This document shows positions 14,945 through 41,771 of a stretch of 61,381 bases of DNA, one piece after another. The position numbers and the translations under genes were made by a program. Source of the DNA: an uncultured Mycoplasmatota bacterium. Its GTDB lineage: Bacteria > Bacillota_I > Bacilli_A > RF39 > UBA660. The notes under the pieces were generated by a model that saw nothing but the letters and a program-made list of their open reading frames with translations, did no database searches and was not told where the DNA came from. Location: the NCBI GenBank assembly GCA_947569245.1, contig CANORV010000001.1, positions 1-61,381 on the forward strand, read 5' to 3'. Numbering within the stretch: position 1 is the first letter of the stretch; every line of letters starts with the position of its first letter.

Positions 14945-15883
14945 TTATTTTCGTAAATATAGTTTGTTACCTTTTTTTAATTGAATTATGTATTTACCGT
15001 CATAATTACATGTAAAAATATGCTTAATTAATGATATATCTGGATTTTCTTCTTGATTATCTTCACCAGCATCATCACTTTTTTTAGGATAAACTTTAGT
15101 CCATGAATCATTACTTGCTATATAATAATTATCTATTTTATACCAAGTATAATTATCAGTATTGTTATCTTTTATAATTTCTTGATAATTGTAAATTCCT
15201 CTTTTTATATAGCCAACTACACGTGAATTAACACTAGGACCACTTCTAAAGCGTAAATCATCAACTATAACTTCTATTTGATTTTTATCTAAATCTCTAG
15301 CAACAGGATTTATTAAAACCTTAGCATCTTTTGGTAAATCAATCCATGTTATATAACCGCCCCATAATTCTTTAGTAAAATCACGATCAATAAAAAAGAC
15401 ATCTTCTGGTTTTTTTGTATCACCAGTTATAACCCATTTACCTAATGAATTTTTAATTAAAGAATCACTATACCCTCTACCAGCTGTCAAATGAATGTGA
15501 TTTGCACTTGCCCCATCAGTTCCTTCATAGCAAATAATATCACCACGTCTAAATTTGTCTCCGACTTTTTTTCCTTTCAAATCACTATCATTAAAATGAG
15601 TCAAAGTCATAAAAGCAATATCTTTAAATGTTGGAGTCACAACTTTTGATGTTGATACTAACCAAACAGTATTGGTATCCTTATTTCCAATTCCACGAAT
15701 TGCTGTGATTTTCATTTCATCACAAGGACAATATATAGCATCTCTTGAAGTATCTTTACCAGCTTCATCTATTGGATAATCTTTTGGACTTCCTGTTGTA
15801 TGTTCTCTGTGAGAAACAGATCCTATATAGTTTTGAGTTATTCTCATATTTTTTAAAGGATATGTCATATAATTATCATTCAT
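14945..15883 (-). CDS. endolysin-like peptidase (M23/LytM-like N-terminal domain plus C-terminal SH3b-like domain)
   Basis: 'HREHTTGSPKDYPID' (HxxxD-like) and 'ANHIHLTAG' (HxH) motifs. 'RFRSGPSVNSRVVGYIKRG' is SH3b-like. No signal peptide. Overlaps the holin-like ORF by 8 nt. Confidence 0.6.
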   Translation of the reverse strand: MNDNYMTYPLKNMRITQNYIGSVSHREHTTGSPKDYPIDEAGKDTSRDAIYCPCDEMKITAIRGIGNKDTNTVWLVSTSKVVTPTFKDIAFMTLTHFNDSDLKGKKVGDKFRRGDIICYEGTDGASANHIHLTAGRGYSDSLIKNSLGKWVITGDTKKPEDVFFIDRDFTKELWGGYITWIDLPKDAKVLINPVARDLDKNQIEVIVDDLRFRSGPSVNSRVVGYIKRGIYNYQEIIKDNNTDNYTWYKIDNYYIASNDSWTKVYPKKSDDAGEDNQEENPDISLIKHIFTCNYDGKYIIQLKKGNKLYLRK

Positions 15884-16238
15884 ATTTTATTTCCTCTAAT
15901 ACTTCAGTATTATCTTTTTTACTGTTTGAAGACGAATTATTATCAGTTGTTGATTTCTTTAAATCTCTAAAAGATGTAAGTTTTCCTTCTAAAGATTTAT
16001 AAATTGTATCAGCACCTAAATAACTAAATAAACCAACCCAAAAACTATATTTTATATCGATATCTGTAAAAGTAATAGTAAATATTACACCTAAAATCAT
16101 ATTTATAACAAAACTATATAAACAAACATGCTTACTACATTTTAAACAGGCCTTTGTTTTTTGGATTAAAGAAACAGATATAGTAGAACTAGTTGTAGCA
16201 ATTAACAGTAAATTTTCTAATAACCGCCATTTAATCAT
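15876..16238 (-). CDS. holin-like small membrane protein
   Basis: 120 aa with three hydrophobic segments and a charged C-terminal tail. Sits immediately upstream of the endolysin-like gene and overlaps it. Confidence 0.5.
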   Translation of the reverse strand: MIKWRLLENLLLIATTSSTISVSLIQKTKACLKCSKHVCLYSFVINMILGVIFTITFTDIDIKYSFWVGLFSYLGADTIYKSLEGKLTSFRDLKKSTTDNNSSSNSKKDNTEVLEEIKYE

Positions 16239-16294
16239 TTTCCATCACCCATCCATATTATATTCAAAAATATAAATATAGTATGGATAAGTAC

Positions 16295-16654
16295 CTAGAG
16301 TTTTAAATTATTTTCTATCATTAAAATAAATCTTTTAGGATCTTCTAGTATTTTTGAATATAAATGTGTATGTTTTCTAAGTTCTAATAAAAACTCTGCT
16401 TCAGATGAAACCATACTAAATGAATATTCTCTACCATCATCTGTTTTTATTTTATAATTTTTGCCAAGAAAATAATTTATATCTACTTCTAAGGCATAAG
16501 CTATTTCAGTTAGTTTTTCATATGTTGGTTTCTTCTTACCACTTTCATAACCACTGATGCTTGCTTTTGAAACACCTATTTTATCTGCCAAAGCTTGTTG
16601 TGTAAGACCACTTTTCTTTCGTAAAACACGTAACCTATTTCCTAAAACCAACAT
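16295..16654 (-). CDS. XRE-family helix-turn-helix transcriptional regulator
   Basis: 'LRVLRKKSGLTQQALADKIGVSKASISGYESGKKKP' is a canonical Cro/CI-type HTH. Confidence 0.85.
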   Translation of the reverse strand: MLVLGNRLRVLRKKSGLTQQALADKIGVSKASISGYESGKKKPTYEKLTEIAYALEVDINYFLGKNYKIKTDDGREYSFSMVSSEAEFLLELRKHTHLYSKILEDPKRFILMIENNLKL

Positions 16655-16756
16655 AAAATCACACTCCGATACCTTTTAGATATCTAGATTATAGATTAAA
16701 TGAATAATATATACTCAGAAGTTAACCAAAGATAAACTTTTTTAACTTATTTTATG

Positions 16757-16784
16757 TTGCATTTATTACAAAATATGATAAAAT
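16757..16784 (+). promoter_or_regulatory. candidate sigma-A promoter for tRNA-Thr
   Basis: TTGCAT, 16-nt spacer, TG-n-TAAAAT, ending about 15 nt before the tRNA 5' end. Confidence 0.4.
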
Positions 16785-16799
16785 TATATTGTGCTAAAG

Positions 16800-16873
16800 G
16801 CCGATTTAGTTTAGTGGTAAAACAGATGCATGGTAAGCATCAGAGGACTGTTCAATTCAGTCATTCGGCACCA
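16800..16873 (+). tRNA. tRNA-Thr (anticodon GGU), encoded CCA
   Basis: Hand-folded cloverleaf. Acceptor GCCGATT/ATTCGGC (one mismatch). D stem GTTT/AAAC. Anticodon stem GATGC/GCATC with loop ATGGTAA. T arm GACTG-TTCAATT-CAGTC. 3' ACCA. Confidence 0.85.
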
Positions 16874-16893
16874 GATTGATAGGAAACTCGAAC
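16868..16893 (+). repeat. direct repeat copy 1 (tRNA 3' end plus 20 nt), att-like
   Basis: GCACCAGATTGATAGGAAACTCGAAC. It matches 22389-22414 at 24 of 26 positions. Confidence 0.7.
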
Positions 16894-16912
16894 TTCGAGT
16901 AACAATAGAAAG

Positions 16913-16935
16913 CGACTTGTCAAAAAGTCGTTTTT
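16913..16935 (+). terminator. rho-independent terminator after tRNA-Thr
   Basis: CGACTT-GTCAAA-AAGTCG followed by TTTTT. Confidence 0.5.
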
Positions 16936-16949
16936 GTGATATTATGGAT

Positions 16950-17063
16950 ATGTCAAGGAAACTTGCATAAAATAAAAAAGGGAATACTTAACCTTTCCAT
17001 GTTGAGTGTTCGCCAAAGATTTGGTTAGCACTTAATCTACGAAAGTAAATTGAGTGCTTTTTT
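16950..17063 (+). ncRNA. putative small RNA convergent with the 27-aa toxin-like ORF (candidate type I antitoxin)
   Basis: Promoter-like TTGTCA, 17-nt spacer, TG-n-TATTAT (16917-16945). Terminator AGCACTTAAT..ATTGAGTGCT plus T-run (17027-17063). Transcript ends are inferred, not observed. Confidence 0.3.
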
Positions 17064-17077
17064 CTTATGATAGTTTA

Positions 17078-17161
17078 CTATATTACAAAAGTAAAAAGTA
17101 AGGCTATGAGTAAGAAGATAATTAGAATAAGAGAAAGAATCAAAAAATCTTTCTTATGCAT
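17078..17161 (-). CDS. 27-aa hydrophobic peptide, type I toxin-like (MHKKDFLILSLILIIFLLIALLFTFVI)
   Basis: AGGAGG sits 8 nt upstream of the ATG. Single predicted TM helix with a charged N-terminus. Strong promoter upstream. Absent from the ORF track because it is too short. Confidence 0.5.
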   Translation of the reverse strand: MHKKDFLILSLILIIFLLIALLFTFVI

Positions 17162-17224
17162 ATCATCAGCCTCCTTTCACATGAAAGTTGGCAAGCACTC
17201 AACGATTAAGTATTCCTAGTGTTA

Positions 17225-17253
17225 ATTATATCAAGATATTTATTTTATAACAA
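17225..17253 (-). promoter_or_regulatory. candidate sigma-A promoter for the toxin-like ORF
   Basis: Minus strand reads TTGTTA, 17-nt spacer, TG-n-TATAAT. The predicted start falls at the inverted-repeat arm AGGAATACTTAATCG. Confidence 0.5.
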
Positions 17254-17258
17254 TATTA

Positions 17259-17313
17259 TTTACTAAATTCTGACAATTTAGTAAAAACACACTTGCAAAT
17301 TGACATATTCAAT
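17259..17313 (+). repeat. 5' box copy A (conserved sequence upstream of a cargo gene) with hairpins
   Basis: TGACAATTTAGTAAAAACACACTTGCAAATTGACATATTCAAT is about 85% identical to 22491-22531. It is preceded by a perfect 11-bp inverted repeat, TTTACTAAATT/AATTTAGTAAA. Confidence 0.6.
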
Positions 17314-17331
17314 TAGAGAGAAGTGATAACT

Positions 17332-17889
17332 ATGGCTTGTGCAACAATACATTTAGCAATAGCTAAAAAATATTTAAATAAACACGAAGAATTAAATTAT
17401 GAAAAGGTAATTGCAGGGACACTTTATCCAGATGCAGCAGAAGATAATGATAAATCACATTATACTGATATTAATCGTGGTAATGATAATATAAGCCATG
17501 TACGTGGGAAAGTAAATTTATATGCATTTTTAAATGAGCATAAATATTTGGATGATTTTGAGCTGGGTTGGTTCTTACATTTAGTAACAGACTATCTATT
17601 CTTTGAAGAATGTTTTACAGAAGAATATTTATTAAATAATAGCTATAAAGATTTTTGTAAAGATTTGTATTTTGCTTATGATCATTTAAATCTTTATTTA
17701 TCTAAAAAGTATGATATTACAGAAAATGATTACAAAAACTATTCTAGTGAGTATTATCCAGGGAAAAAATATCAAGATTGCATTTTGCCTAAAGAGATGA
17801 TTGATGAGTTTATAGATAGAGTTTCTAATATTGATTTGGATAAATATATTGAGAAAATTGAAAAATATCAAAGTAATATAAAACCATAA
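17332..17889 (+). CDS. hypothetical protein, possibly zinc-dependent phospholipase C/P1-nuclease-fold hydrolase
   Basis: His/Asp pattern 'ATIHLAIA', 'LYPDAAED', 'SHY', 'FLHLVTDY' recalls the Zn-dependent PLC family. The assignment is weak. Start at ATG 17332. Confidence 0.35.
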   Translation: MACATIHLAIAKKYLNKHEELNYEKVIAGTLYPDAAEDNDKSHYTDINRGNDNISHVRGKVNLYAFLNEHKYLDDFELGWFLHLVTDYLFFEECFTEEYLLNNSYKDFCKDLYFAYDHLNLYLSKKYDITENDYKNYSSEYYPGKKYQDCILPKEMIDEFIDRVSNIDLDKYIEKIEKYQSNIKP

Positions 17890-17907
17890 AAGTTGTTGAA
17901 CGTCCTT
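17888..17907 (+). repeat. 3' box copy A
   Basis: AAAAGTTGTTGAACGTCCTT is identical to 23249-23268. It begins within the stop codon of the cargo gene. Confidence 0.6.
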
Positions 17908-17963
17908 CCTTAGGGCACCATTGAGCAATCTATTCTAACTTTTGTTAGATTTAAACATATAGT

Positions 17964-22268: not shown

Positions 22269-22388
22269 AAAAATGTTTAAAAAATATAGCATTATTAGTA
22301 AAAATAGTTTATAATTTAGATATGAAGTCAGTACTATATGTACTTGATTACTTAATTTTGCGAAAAGTTGTAGATAACTATCACTATC

Positions 22389-22414
22389 GCACCAGATTGA
22401 TACCAAACTCGAAC
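22389..22414 (+). repeat. direct repeat copy 2, att-like
   Basis: GCACCAGATTGATACCAAACTCGAAC. Confidence 0.7.
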
Positions 22415-22442
22415 CTCTCTATTTTAGAGAGGCTCGAGTTTT
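22408..22442 (+). terminator. rho-independent terminator downstream of the island-1 operon
   Basis: CTCGAACCTCTCT-ATTTT-AGAGAGGCTCGAG followed by TTTT. Confidence 0.55.
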
Positions 22443-22467
22443 AAAATATCCTAAGTTTTGATATAAT
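22439..22467 (+). promoter_or_regulatory. candidate extended -10 promoter upstream of 5' box B
   Basis: TTTTAA, 17-nt spacer, TG-n-TATAAT. Confidence 0.35.
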
Positions 22468-22490
22468 GTTTTTGTAAATAAATTGAATTT

Positions 22491-22531
22491 TGTCAATTTA
22501 GTAAACACACTTGTACATTGACATCATCAAT
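22491..22531 (+). repeat. 5' box copy B
   Basis: TGTCAATTTAGTAAACACACTTGTACATTGACATCATCAAT. The CATTGA-CATCA-TCAATG hairpin carries a compensatory base-pair change relative to copy A (AATTGA-CATAT-TCAATT). Confidence 0.6.
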
Positions 22532-22552
22532 GAATGTGTGTAGGAGGTACTT

Positions 22553-23260
22553 ATGAAGAAAGATTGTAAATTGACGTTTTTTGAAAATTTCAATGATTTA
22601 AATAATTGGAATTTTAACATTGGAAGTGGACTTAAAAATTTATGGGGGAATCATGAGAAAGAGTTTTATACTCAAAAAGATGATAATATTTATATAAAGG
22701 ATAATAAATTATATATTGTTGCTAAAAGAGAAAAATTTGAAGATTGTAATTATACCTCAGCAAGAATAACTACGAAAGATAAAAAATATTTTAAATATGG
22801 TTATATTGAAATAAAAGCTAAACTTCCTACGGGAAGGGGTTCATGGCCCGCTTTATGGAGGATGGGGCAAAACGGATTATGGCCTATAGGTGGAGAAATA
22901 AATATTATGGAACATATTGGAATTAATCAAAATATGATTTACCACACAATTCATTCTAAAAATCATATATGTAAATCTTATTTCTCACATAAAGAAATAA
23001 TAAATGGTGTTTCAGATGACTTTCATATATACGGAATGCTATGGGAAGAGAATGCTATTGAATTCTTTGTTGATAATGTTCCTTATGGAAAAATAACTAA
23101 TGATAAATATATAAATAAGGAGGATTAGCCATTTAATGATTATTTTTATTTTATTATTAATTTAGCAGTCGGAGGAGATTGGGCTGGAGAAATAGTTGAT
23201 GAAGATTTACCATTTATTTTTATAATTGATTATATTAAGGTTTATCAGAAAAGTTGTTGA
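22553..23260 (+). pseudogene. GH16 beta-glucanase/laminarinase-like gene interrupted by an in-frame TAG
   Basis: 'GGEINIMEH' corresponds to the GH16 ExDxxE motif with Asp replaced by Asn. The TAG at 23126-23128 is followed in the same frame by 'PFNDYFYFIINLAVGGDWAGE...IDYIKVYQ', a typical GH16 C-terminus. No signal peptide. Confidence 0.7.
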
Positions 23261-23268
23261 ACGTCCTT
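23249..23268 (+). repeat. 3' box copy B
   Basis: AAAAGTTGTTGAACGTCCTT. It contains the TGA that ends the extended GH16 frame. Confidence 0.6.
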
Positions 23269-23862
23269 TCCAATGTCATCAGTTTAAGAAACTATGCAAG
23301 AAATTGTATAGGTTTCATCATTTATCACACGCCAAAATTCATCAGTTATAATTGATGTTTAACTGCCTTAATATTAAAATTAAATACTACTTAATTTATT
23401 GTAACTATTCTTATTATAGGGACTAAAATGAACTTTATGTTTCCTACCTTTTCTTATTGGTATTTTATATTTAGACATTTTATTTATTAATTTATCATAC
23501 ACAACTTTAATCTTTTATTTTCGTCTTCTTCTAACATTATCTTTATTCATTACTTTTAAATAATCCTATTGCCATATCTTCATCTATAGTCATTTCATAC
23601 TTATATTTATTTTGTTCTAGTTTTTCTTCTGTTTCTTTCATCATAGACGAAACTATATTAAAAATGAGTACACTAGAGAAAAAATATTGTTCTATTATAA
23701 TCTTGAAACTACTAATAAATTTTTCTGTTTTTAACTTCCATTTTAAAAATTTTTATAAATCGCCCCACTTTGGAAACACTATCTTTAATCTAAGTAAATT
23801 TGACAAAAAAACAATACTTATGCACAATAATAAGTACATTTGAGAGGAGAATAAGAATATAT

Positions 23863-41295: not shown

Positions 41296-41525
41296 ATAAA
41301 AAGACTAGTCTAATATCCCTCTATGGGACGAAACTAGTCTTCTTTTTCCGCGGTGCCACCCAATTTATCATAAAATGATCACTTTTCGATTCTAACAAAT
41401 CTAGTATATGATAACGGCATACATCTCCCGGCTTAATCTACTTGTTTCCTTTCGGTAAGCAACTAATAAGTGTTCTTTCGAAAAATTACTTTATCTAGCT
41501 TCCATCAACCTAGACTTGCTTTAAA
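41296..41525 (-). promoter_or_regulatory. T-box riboswitch leader with terminator/antiterminator
   Basis: Minus strand reads AAATTGGGTGGCACCGCGG (T-box consensus), followed by the terminator AAGACTAGT..ACTAGTCTT plus TTTTT. A GA/K-turn-like UUGAUGG lies near the 5' end. The Stem III hairpin AUCAU-UUU-AUGAU sits just before the T-box sequence. Confidence 0.8.
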
Positions 41526-41771
41526 ACTAATTTTTTCTACTTTTCTTAATCACTGTTTTTCTTAAATTCATATATTCTTATTTTTTTATCACTGCATATA
41601 TCAACATATCAAAATGCAGATAATACTATCATAATACTTTTAACTCATTCTGTCAAACCAATAAATTATTTTTTTTATAACTTATTATATAATAATATAT
41701 TACAAAATATTTATTTAATTACCTTATTAATACAAATTATTTTATATAAGTTTTTATCAAATTAAATATAA

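Follow-up and report, generated by a model that had tools for sequence, protein, structure and literature searches.

What is encoded in the few hundred nucleotides (nt) directly behind a tRNA-Thr(GGT) gene of an uncultured Mycoplasmatota bacterium? The DNA analysed (hereafter, the window) is a stretch of 61,381 nt from contig CANORV010000001.1 (assembly GCA_947569245.1) with a G+C content of ~26%, and the locus comprises a 27-codon open reading frame (ORF) on the minus strand and a convergent RNA gene on the plus strand. A preliminary description made from the letters alone had compared this arrangement with a type I toxin-antitoxin (TA) locus, and a reading of the sequence over 16500-17700 found all of the module features where they had been placed (Table 1). 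Based on comparative sequence analysis, we consider it likely that the region holds a type I TA module of a previously undescribed family, formed by a membrane peptide of 27 residues and a convergent antisense RNA.

The peptide gene and the convergent RNA

Metagenomes were scanned with a pattern derived from the 5' part of the plus-strand RNA, which returned at least 120 stretches. The preliminary description had suggested a search for homologs, and about 100 diverged copies of the module from gut metagenomes and metagenome-assembled genomes (MAGs) were compared. Among the 94 unique copies (96 if less flanking sequence is required) there are more than 50 peptide variants. In the window peptide, the short N-terminus (MHKKD) is basic and the 22 residues after it are almost wholly hydrophobic, with one predicted helix. 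This layout is constant in variants of 24-36 amino acids (aa), which frequently have a terminal Lys; examples from diverged copies are MHKKDFLIL.., MTKKDFLIFALIVIIILLILLLFK, MKKKDLLISF.. and MNKKDLLIF... The variants fall into four subfamilies, M.KKD[FL]LI.., MKTKTFI.KVLKLIAIILLLS..KK, MTKRE.SLFIIILLLF..K and MRKSEK..IIILLI.., and no family was found for any of them in Pfam (to E 10), NCBIfam or PHROGs.

The ORF and its Shine-Dalgarno (SD) sequence were retained in ~80% of the unique copies. Copies at 70-95% DNA identity keep both, and the SD spacing is 7-9 nt throughout all subfamilies. The ratio of nonsynonymous to synonymous polymorphism (pN/pS) in frame was 0.37 in subfamily A (n = 24) and 0.46 in subfamily B (n = 12), compared with 0.76-1.6 in both shifted frames, and the nucleotide diversity of the ORF by codon position was 3>1>2. 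By these measures the 27-codon ORF, described at the outset as a minus-strand frame with AGGAGG 8 nt upstream, is a coding gene whose protein product is under purifying selection.

On the plus strand, a promoter and terminator that could together yield an RNA of ~115 nt had been pointed out. Both are present, the predicted small RNA (sRNA) is ~113 nt, and its structure covaries. The fold of the plus-strand RNA has z = -5.1, and none of 200 shuffled sequences folds as well. A consensus fold from 72 unique copies consists of a 5' hairpin (CAAG-GAAA-CUUG), an A-rich linker, hairpin H1 and the terminator H2. Across these copies 90.5% of the cells were standard-paired, compared with 34-42% when the partners were slid, and compensatory double changes were seen in 17 of the 29 pairs. 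H1 is rich in G.U pairs, which the opposite strand would show as A.C, and of 55 unique copies 44 have the more stable H1 on the plus strand (-11.9 vs -8.8 kcal/mol). The G.U-rich covariation therefore indicates that RNA, not DNA, is the selected form of H1, and by this comparative evidence selection has maintained the plus-strand sRNA as a strand-specific structure. Conservation within the module is highest at 16950-16982, a block corresponding to the first ~30 nt of the sRNA (GUCAAGGAAACUUGCAUAAAAUAAAAAAGG; the hairpin plus CAUAAAAUAAAAAAGG). This block is more conserved than the ORF, even across peptide subfamilies, also in copies that were found independently of it.

Promoter-like sites are by themselves not enriched in this DNA (5 found, 5.3 expected from shuffled sequence). 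In 74 unique copies the antitoxin promoter has a -10 box matching at least 5/6 positions in 67, the TG in 54 and a -35 box matching at least 4/6 positions in 53. Its -35 box is frequently located in the loop of a terminator-like hairpin, the stem of which covaries (CGAC/GTCG, GAAC/GTTC, GGAC/GTCC, ACAC/GTGT) with the TTGnnA loop retained. The near-consensus promoter proposed for the peptide is likewise present in the window. Across 63 unique copies its -10 box is retained in 56 and a good -35 box in 11, and the mostly poor -35 box means that the toxin promoter is probably weaker than the antitoxin promoter.

The two genes are not lost equally. In 19 of the 96 unique sRNA copies the ORF is truncated, interrupted, nonsense-bearing or missing. 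The fetched DNA (1.15 Mb) contains 90 peptide-like ORFs, of which 87 are followed on the opposite strand by the strict sRNA motif; of the remaining three, one has a variant sRNA and two are spurious, leaving all 88 genuine ORFs with the sRNA. Loss of the ORF with the RNA kept, and an ORF that never occurs alone, is the pattern that sequence comparison would be predicted to give for a harmful gene and its antidote.

Orphan antitoxin copies, with an intact sRNA gene and a peptide ORF that is truncated, replaced or nonsense-bearing, were also noted individually (L081, L082, L097, L104, L111, where the frame reads MNK-stop, L121, L155 and L188).

Folding of the peptide mRNA and the proposed mode of action

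The preliminary description had also proposed to fold the full-length mRNA in silico and had likened its 5'-3' pairing to that of hok-like mRNAs. For the minus-strand RNA, predicted at 255 nt, the folding energy is -72.7 kcal/mol (z = -6.55), and no fold as good came from any of 200 shuffles. In the minimum free energy (MFE) structure of the window mRNA the first ~30 nt are paired with the stretch just ahead of the U-run, with 28 predicted pairs between the first 40 and the last 75 nt. Long-range pairing of at least 15 pairs is predicted in the MFE structures of 55 of 68 unique mRNAs. It is cognate-specific: in a subsample of the copies, the 5' untranslated region (UTR) paired with its own 3' UTR at -32.5 kcal/mol and with non-cognate 3' UTRs at -21.3 kcal/mol, the median rank of the cognate partner being 2 of 32.

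Two sequences involved in this pairing had been described as inverted repeats flanking the module. A repeat search detected them at the same coordinates, 16980-17016 and 17188-17216, with no additional copy within the window. They are not flanks or MITE-like (miniature inverted-repeat transposable element) ends, being internal RNA elements, namely H1 of the sRNA and its near copy H1' at the 5' end of the mRNA. The sequence of H1' tracks that of H1 within each subfamily (H1 / H1' examples: ..UGUCGCCUC / ..UGUCAGCCUCC; ..UGUCUACCC / ..UGUCUACCUC; ..GGUACUAUUCC / ..GGUACUAUUCUCC). Because H1' copies H1, the 5' end of the mRNA is complementary to its own 3' UTR, and judging from these alignments the 5'-3' pairing is co-evolving across subfamilies. 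The hairpin CTTTC-ATGT-GAAAG noted earlier over the SD sequence is also a general feature, since a C/U-rich anti-SD stem lies just upstream of the SD in all four subfamilies with differing sequence, and 60 of 68 unique mRNAs have an MFE structure in which pairing takes up at least 50% of the SD.

As far as sequence can tell, the module has the testable defining features of a type I TA system, including a protein of <60 aa with a predicted transmembrane helix. One article (PMC12390103) gives Proteobacteria, Firmicutes and Tenericutes as the only groups from which such systems are reported, so that the host group is unsurprising. By the searches made here, the module falls outside Hok, Fst, TxpA/Bsr and all other families for which a curated model exists. 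At the module, Rfam searched with E up to 10 gave chance-level matches, the best being ctRNA_pT181 with 21.9 bits (gathering score 56, E = 2.9). Above the gathering threshold, Rfam identified the tRNA and a distant T-box alone in the window. The literature search found no description of this TA family or of the cassettes described below.

The layout is closest to txpA/RatA and bsrG/SR4, with an added closure like that of hok and aapA1. As in txpA/RatA, bsrG/SR4, bsrE/SR5 and yonT/SR6 of B. subtilis, a small hydrophobic peptide gene faces a convergent sRNA with overlapping 3' ends (PMC8167048, PMC5848175). The overlap is restricted to the 3' ends, and the layout is alike in all copies. The ~113-nt sRNA falls within the ~100-220 nt of the txpA/RatA type, the antitoxin promoter is the stronger one in both, and both reside on mobile or prophage-like DNA. 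The 3'-overlapping antisense RNAs of this type, for example those of txpA/RatA and bsrG/SR4, act via an RNase III mechanism (PMC8167048), and the long perfect duplex of ~95 bp in the module would likewise be expected to be an RNase III substrate. Binding of SR4 at the bsrG 3' end also alters the structure near the SD, a plausible analogue for the module. Unlike TxpA, BsrG, BsrE and YonT, to which it has no detectable sequence relationship (Pfam, NCBIfam), the module peptide is shorter, at 24-31 aa, and has its charges at the N-terminus. The module also differs from this type in the co-evolving 5'-3' closure of the mRNA, the 3' partner of which is the sRNA target itself, and in an sRNA promoter that lies inside a terminator loop behind a tRNA.

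The predicted long-distance 5'-3' closure and the sequestered SD are shared with hok/Sok of E. coli plasmid R1 and aapA1/IsoA1 of Helicobacter pylori, in which closure stabilises the full-length toxin mRNA and keeps translation off (PMC8167048). The antisense RNAs of hok/Sok and aapA1/IsoA1 bind the 5' region, in hok/Sok the leader with the mok ribosome binding site, and 3' trimming is needed for activation, whereas the sRNA of the module covers the 3' end that takes part in the closure. The module lacks a mok-like leader ORF and any Hok or AapA homology (HOK_GEF gave no match to E 10). With par (Fst; RNA I/RNA II of Enterococcus faecalis pAD1) it shares convergent transcripts with a common terminator hairpin region and a 5' structure that occludes the ribosome binding site. 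It differs in the absence of an Fst_toxin match and of an APxxVG-type helix with a charged tail, and in an mRNA that reads through the shared hairpin to its own U-run. A direct repeat of 15 nt (17021-17035 and 17188-17202, 80% identical) gives complementarity between the sRNA and the 5' UTR. A par-like interaction in trans, in which the terminator arm of the sRNA would pair with the 5' UTR of the mRNA, was not adopted as the main one because of its weak cognate specificity.

By analogy with these systems, a mode of action can be proposed. The minus strand would give an mRNA of ~250 nt for the 27-residue single-helix membrane peptide, the putative toxin, and the plus strand the ~113-nt antitoxin sRNA from the stronger promoter in the upstream terminator loop. 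The closed 5'-3' form, as in hok and aapA1, would keep the toxin mRNA stable and poorly translated. Abundant sRNA may then invade the mRNA 3' UTR and displace its look-alike H1', and the resulting long duplex would be cleaved, with RNase III the probable enzyme, as it is in txpA/RatA and bsrG/SR4. As long as the locus is present, no peptide would be made. On loss of the DNA, the sRNA would decay first and the leftover mRNA could kill or arrest the cell.

Several observations sit less easily with a type I TA module working in this way. The MFE structure of the window copy pairs just 1 of 5 SD bases, and that of subfamily C is without the long-range pairing. The trans pairing of sRNA and 5' UTR is weakly cognate-specific (-20.4 vs -17.7 kcal/mol, median rank ~8.5 of 32). 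An sRNA bound at the 3' UTR frees the 5' end of the mRNA and brings by itself no obvious repression, so that the repression step is drawn from analogy. Simple antisense action does not explain the conservation of the first ~30 nt of the sRNA, which may be a protein or RNase site or be needed as the terminator U-tract of the mRNA. Type I toxins usually carry a charged C-terminus (PMC6563280); the charges of the peptide sit at the N-terminus, the window peptide ends ...FTFVI, and its relatives have 0-2 terminal Lys. Most of the loci were retrieved via the sRNA-derived pattern, which biases the count of the ORF/RNA asymmetry, and the transcript ends of both sRNA and mRNA are predicted.

The coding and RNA evidence establishes two functional genes, not the harmfulness of the peptide. 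A non-toxic small membrane protein, for example one that modulates a membrane complex or the cargo of the cassette, could therefore have its level tuned by the convergent RNA with no addiction module involved, and the basic N-terminus and short C-terminus do depart from the usual description of type I toxins (PMC6563280). We regard this as unlikely given that the mRNA appears to be silenced in layers (anti-SD hairpin, 5'-3' closure, weak -35 box, strong antisense promoter) and that the ORF was repeatedly lost with the RNA kept and never found without it. Residence on a mobile cassette fits a toxin and, combined with the silencing and the asymmetry, would be unexpected for a benign protein. It is far less probable that the hairpins and promoters are cassette housekeeping, insulating transcription behind the tRNA and ahead of the cargo or serving as recombination sites, with the small ORF being incidental. 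The frame-specific purifying selection on the ORF with its retained SD, and the G.U-rich covariation that marks RNA as the selected form of H1, speak against this explanation, even though the first hairpin is a terminator directly behind the tRNA, H2 is capable of terminating transcription, and the leader and right-end hairpins are clearly cassette-end features common to cassettes without the TA module. Moreover, the module also occurs outside cassettes, as only ~30 of 115 copies adjoin a tRNA, and the many cassettes without it indicate that it is unnecessary for cassette structure.

The preliminary description had itself named a multicopy MITE whose copies do not preserve the ORF as a finding that would undo it, and the unit is indeed multicopy and mobile, but its copies keep the ORF. 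With G+C at ~26% and promoter-like hexamers as frequent as in shuffled sequence, chance promoter- and ORF-like strings were also worth considering. The inverted repeats are however internal, not terminal, the real ends of the unit being the tRNA CCA and ...GGGCACCA, and unlike a MITE the unit has two conserved genes in it. Chance is excluded by the conservation, covariation and coding signal over ~100 copies, and we consider both the MITE and the chance explanation refuted.

A type I TA module thus remains the preferred reading, and it would add a large family to these systems, with the many toxin variants sharing one RNA architecture. In this family, an mRNA closed 5'-3' in the manner of hok and aapA1 meets a 3' antisense RNA of the RatA/SR4 kind, which mimics the mRNA's own 5' end. 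The family is found in uncultured Bacilli living in association with hosts (their MAGs are labelled Bacilli or Tenericutes), in which type I TA is essentially uncharted and gene callers skip ORFs of 27 codons. With natural covariation available, the helices that matter are already mapped.

Mobile cassettes at tRNA ends

The module had been placed in a mobile region. It is multicopy and mobile, and the thing that moves is a cassette of 1047 bp that had gone unseen, which begins after the tRNA CCA and includes a gene for a 185-aa protein (hereafter, the cargo gene). The exact product of this gene is encoded on contigs with quite different neighbours. Window positions 16874-17920 are 98-100% identical in L001-L010, with at least five different left and right flanks. 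The left flank is always a tRNA 3' end, of at least five different tRNAs (...CACCA joined to GATTGATAGG...), and the right end is always ...CCTTAGGGCACCA followed by unrelated sequence. On the left the unit is thus bounded by the tRNA CCA, and its right boundary is ...GGGCACCA. Between the module and the cargo gene lies a box, CACTTGCAAATTGACA, that precedes different cargo genes in other cassettes and is probably the cargo promoter.

Similar units were found behind other tRNAs. The leader hairpin stands directly after ...CACCA in 31 unique junctions, including cassettes without the TA module, which are many. The same or a related right end was found in L170, L176, L178, L012 and L020, where the next unit abuts. 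In L023 (1219-3349), three units lie head to tail behind a tRNA-Leu, each starting GATGGAT..ACTCGGA..TCGAG and finishing ..(C/T)ACCA, and many further unit-to-unit junctions were found beyond this one. In general, the left end can be written GAT(T/G)GAT..ACTCG(A/G)A-loop-T(C/T)GAG and the right end AAGTTGT..(C/T)ACCA, and cassettes of ~0.85-1.4 kb, a range taken solely from hand-checked junctions, are inserted directly after the tRNA ACCA (also in L012, L020, L108, L110, L128, L166, L176 and L178). The right end offers 'stem + ACCA' anew, and further units are joined to the ACCA of the preceding one, producing tandem arrays. The junction expected for a circular cassette is ...CCTTAGGGCACCA joined to GATTGATAGGAAACTCG, and that for an empty site ...TCATTCGGCACCA joined to TTGAGCAATCTATTC.

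The same tRNA-Thr(GGT) with its XRE gene was compared between samples (L202:1-334 and L205:1-352 with window 16655-17010), and the first cassettes were different. Three kinds were seen at this site: the unit with the TA module and the 185-aa gene, the GH16 unit that in the window lies at ~22395-23275, and a third kind. From these alignments the tRNA-Thr site is one of strain-level cassette turnover. The empty site was not recovered via the downstream genes, the proteins being off record or the contigs breaking at the cassette. Contigs from many other samples break exactly at the tRNA-Thr cassette site.

The association of module and cassette is loose. In the metagenome sample, ~30 of 115 module copies sit 55-90 nt behind a same-strand tRNA of many specificities, and the cargo gene follows the module in 2 of 89 copies. 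An obligate partnership of the module with its 185-aa neighbour was rejected on the latter count, which comes from unbiased copies. Conversely, relatives of the cargo protein were found at 69 loci in 185,579 species genomes, all of them MAGs (uncultured Bacilli, "Tenericutes" and Clostridia), and the module is present at only some of these loci. A BLASTN search of 16880-17320 against phage and plasmid collections gave no match, and because the sRNA pattern had no match in viral contigs, there is no evidence for a phage origin. No recombinase was found in the units examined: an integrase domain was absent among the scanned window neighbours and none was seen by eye in the L023 ORFs, no wider recombinase search being made.

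The nearest comparisons for the cassettes are integron TA cassettes, tycheposon-type islands and pdif modules. As in chromosomal integron arrays, small cassettes are stacked and some carry an array-stabilising TA (PMC13108822), and as in tycheposons the insertions adjoin tRNA genes (10.1101/2020.12.28.424599); both likenesses are functional only. Unlike integrons, in which arrays adjoin intI/attI, attC sites have R''/R' cores and cassettes are promoterless, the tRNA-end units carry their own promoters, show no integrase, attI or attC-type site and start at the CCA of many different tRNAs. Integron TAs are of type II, the TA described here would be of type I, and the cassette hosts are uncultured low-GC Bacilli. 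Nothing in the literature was found to match a tRNA-CCA target with a self-renewing "stem + ACCA" right end.

What is newest in the finding is the cassette context. We tentatively propose, as a reading that may or may not prove right, that a class of cassettes not described before, without a recombinase of their own, has the TA module as its built-in addiction device. These cassettes would insert precisely after the ACCA of tRNA genes of many specificities, renew the target with their own 'hairpin + ACCA' end, hence pile up in tandem arrays, and be swapped between strains, an integron-like gene capture in small-genome gut Bacilli driven by a helper enzyme. The likely job of the module in such a cassette would be to make its loss costly. 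The module marks small tRNA-CCA cassettes that differ between strains at one tRNA, and if confirmed, the cassettes would be a new way for genes to be captured and exchanged in the gut microbiome, with the TA module the probable reason for their persistence.

Two further observations concern insertions at tRNA ends. In L122 (3870-4420) the module is flanked by a 15-bp direct repeat, GCTCCACCATTAGAA, that contains the 3' end of a tRNA-Ala, which may reflect another type of insertion or duplication event at tRNA ends, one lacking the GATTGAT leader. The window itself has a second cassette of the same class at 22366-23275, without the TA module and with a GH16-family gene. In order, it has a right-end remnant (AAAGTTGTAGATAACTATCACTATCGCACCA), the leader hairpin, the cargo-promoter box, the GH16 gene and a degenerate right end. 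The GH16 gene seems to be interrupted by a stop at 23126-23128, past which the frame continues.

Feature coordinates and neighbouring genes

Table 1 Features of the TA module and of the cassette that carries it (window coordinates)
Feature	Position	Strand	Remarks
tRNA-Thr(GGT)	16800..16873	+	ARAGORN; Rfam tRNA 61.7 bits; 3' ACCA is the cassette insertion point
Mobile unit, 1047 bp	16874..17920	+	Leader, TA module, cargo promoter, 185-aa gene, right end
Leader hairpin ACTCGAA/TTCGAGT	16886..16900	+	After GATTGATAGGAA; cassette feature, outside the TA module
Terminator-like hairpin CGACTT/AAGTCG with T-run	16913..16935	+	Loop contains the -35 box of the antitoxin promoter
Antitoxin sRNA promoter TTGTCA, 17 nt, TG-n-TATTAT	16917..16945	+	10/12 consensus positions plus TG
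Predicted antitoxin sRNA, ~113 nt	16952..17064	+	Ends predicted from promoter and terminator
sRNA 5' hairpin CAAG-GAAA-CUUG	16954-16965	+	
sRNA A-rich linker	16966-16979	+	
sRNA hairpin H1	16980-17014	+	
sRNA terminator H2	17027-17058 plus U-run	+	Arms 17027-17040 and 17045-17058, then TTTTTT
Predicted toxin mRNA, ~249 nt	16970..17218	-	Ends inferred from promoter and U-run; 3' end overlaps the sRNA by ~95 nt, perfectly complementary, and stops at the U-run
Toxin candidate ORF, 27 aa, MHKKDFLILSLILIIFLLIALLFTFVI	17078..17161 (17161->17078)	-	
Shine-Dalgarno AGGAGG	17175->17170	-	8 nt before ATG
Anti-SD hairpin CUUUC-AUGU-GAAAG	17187->17174	-	Overlaps the Shine-Dalgarno
H1', 5' end of the predicted toxin mRNA	17188..17216	-	Near copy of sRNA H1; partner is the mRNA 3' end, 16980-17016
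Toxin mRNA promoter TTGTTA, 17 nt, TG-n-TATAAT	17225..17253	-	10/12 consensus positions plus TG
Conserved box CACTTGCAAATTGACA	17290..17305	+	Ahead of the cargo gene
Cargo gene, 185-aa protein	17332..17889	+	
Cassette right end AAGTTGTTGAACGTCCTTCCTTAGGGCACCA	17890..17920	+	Hairpin GUCCU-UCCUU-AGGGC, then ACCA

The 185-aa cargo protein has 318 homologs with invariant H7, D34, H43, H56, H83 and D87, and its AlphaFold2 model is all-alpha with a mean confidence score (pLDDT) of 94.3. No PDB match was found by sequence profile or Foldseek, and no Pfam match in the scan. A relationship to phospholipase C/P1 nuclease, taken from a reading of the sequence and three precomputed PF00882 labels, was unsupported by the Pfam scan, the PDB profile search and Foldseek. 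The family is often encoded behind tRNA genes.

Just downstream of the cassette, the ORF at 18020-18886 matches only the C-terminal part of the plasmid recombination enzyme Mob_Pre (profile positions 125-170), followed by a long coiled coil, and probably represents what is left of a relaxase. Directly before the tRNA, the minus strand at 14945-16654 encodes an XRE-type helix-turn-helix repressor together with two proteins, one membrane-like of 120 aa and one of 312 aa that matches SH3_3 weakly, an arrangement that resembles a prophage lysis/regulation remnant. Farther away, at 41321-41562 on the minus strand, a T-box leader was identified with 104 bits, above the Rfam gathering score.

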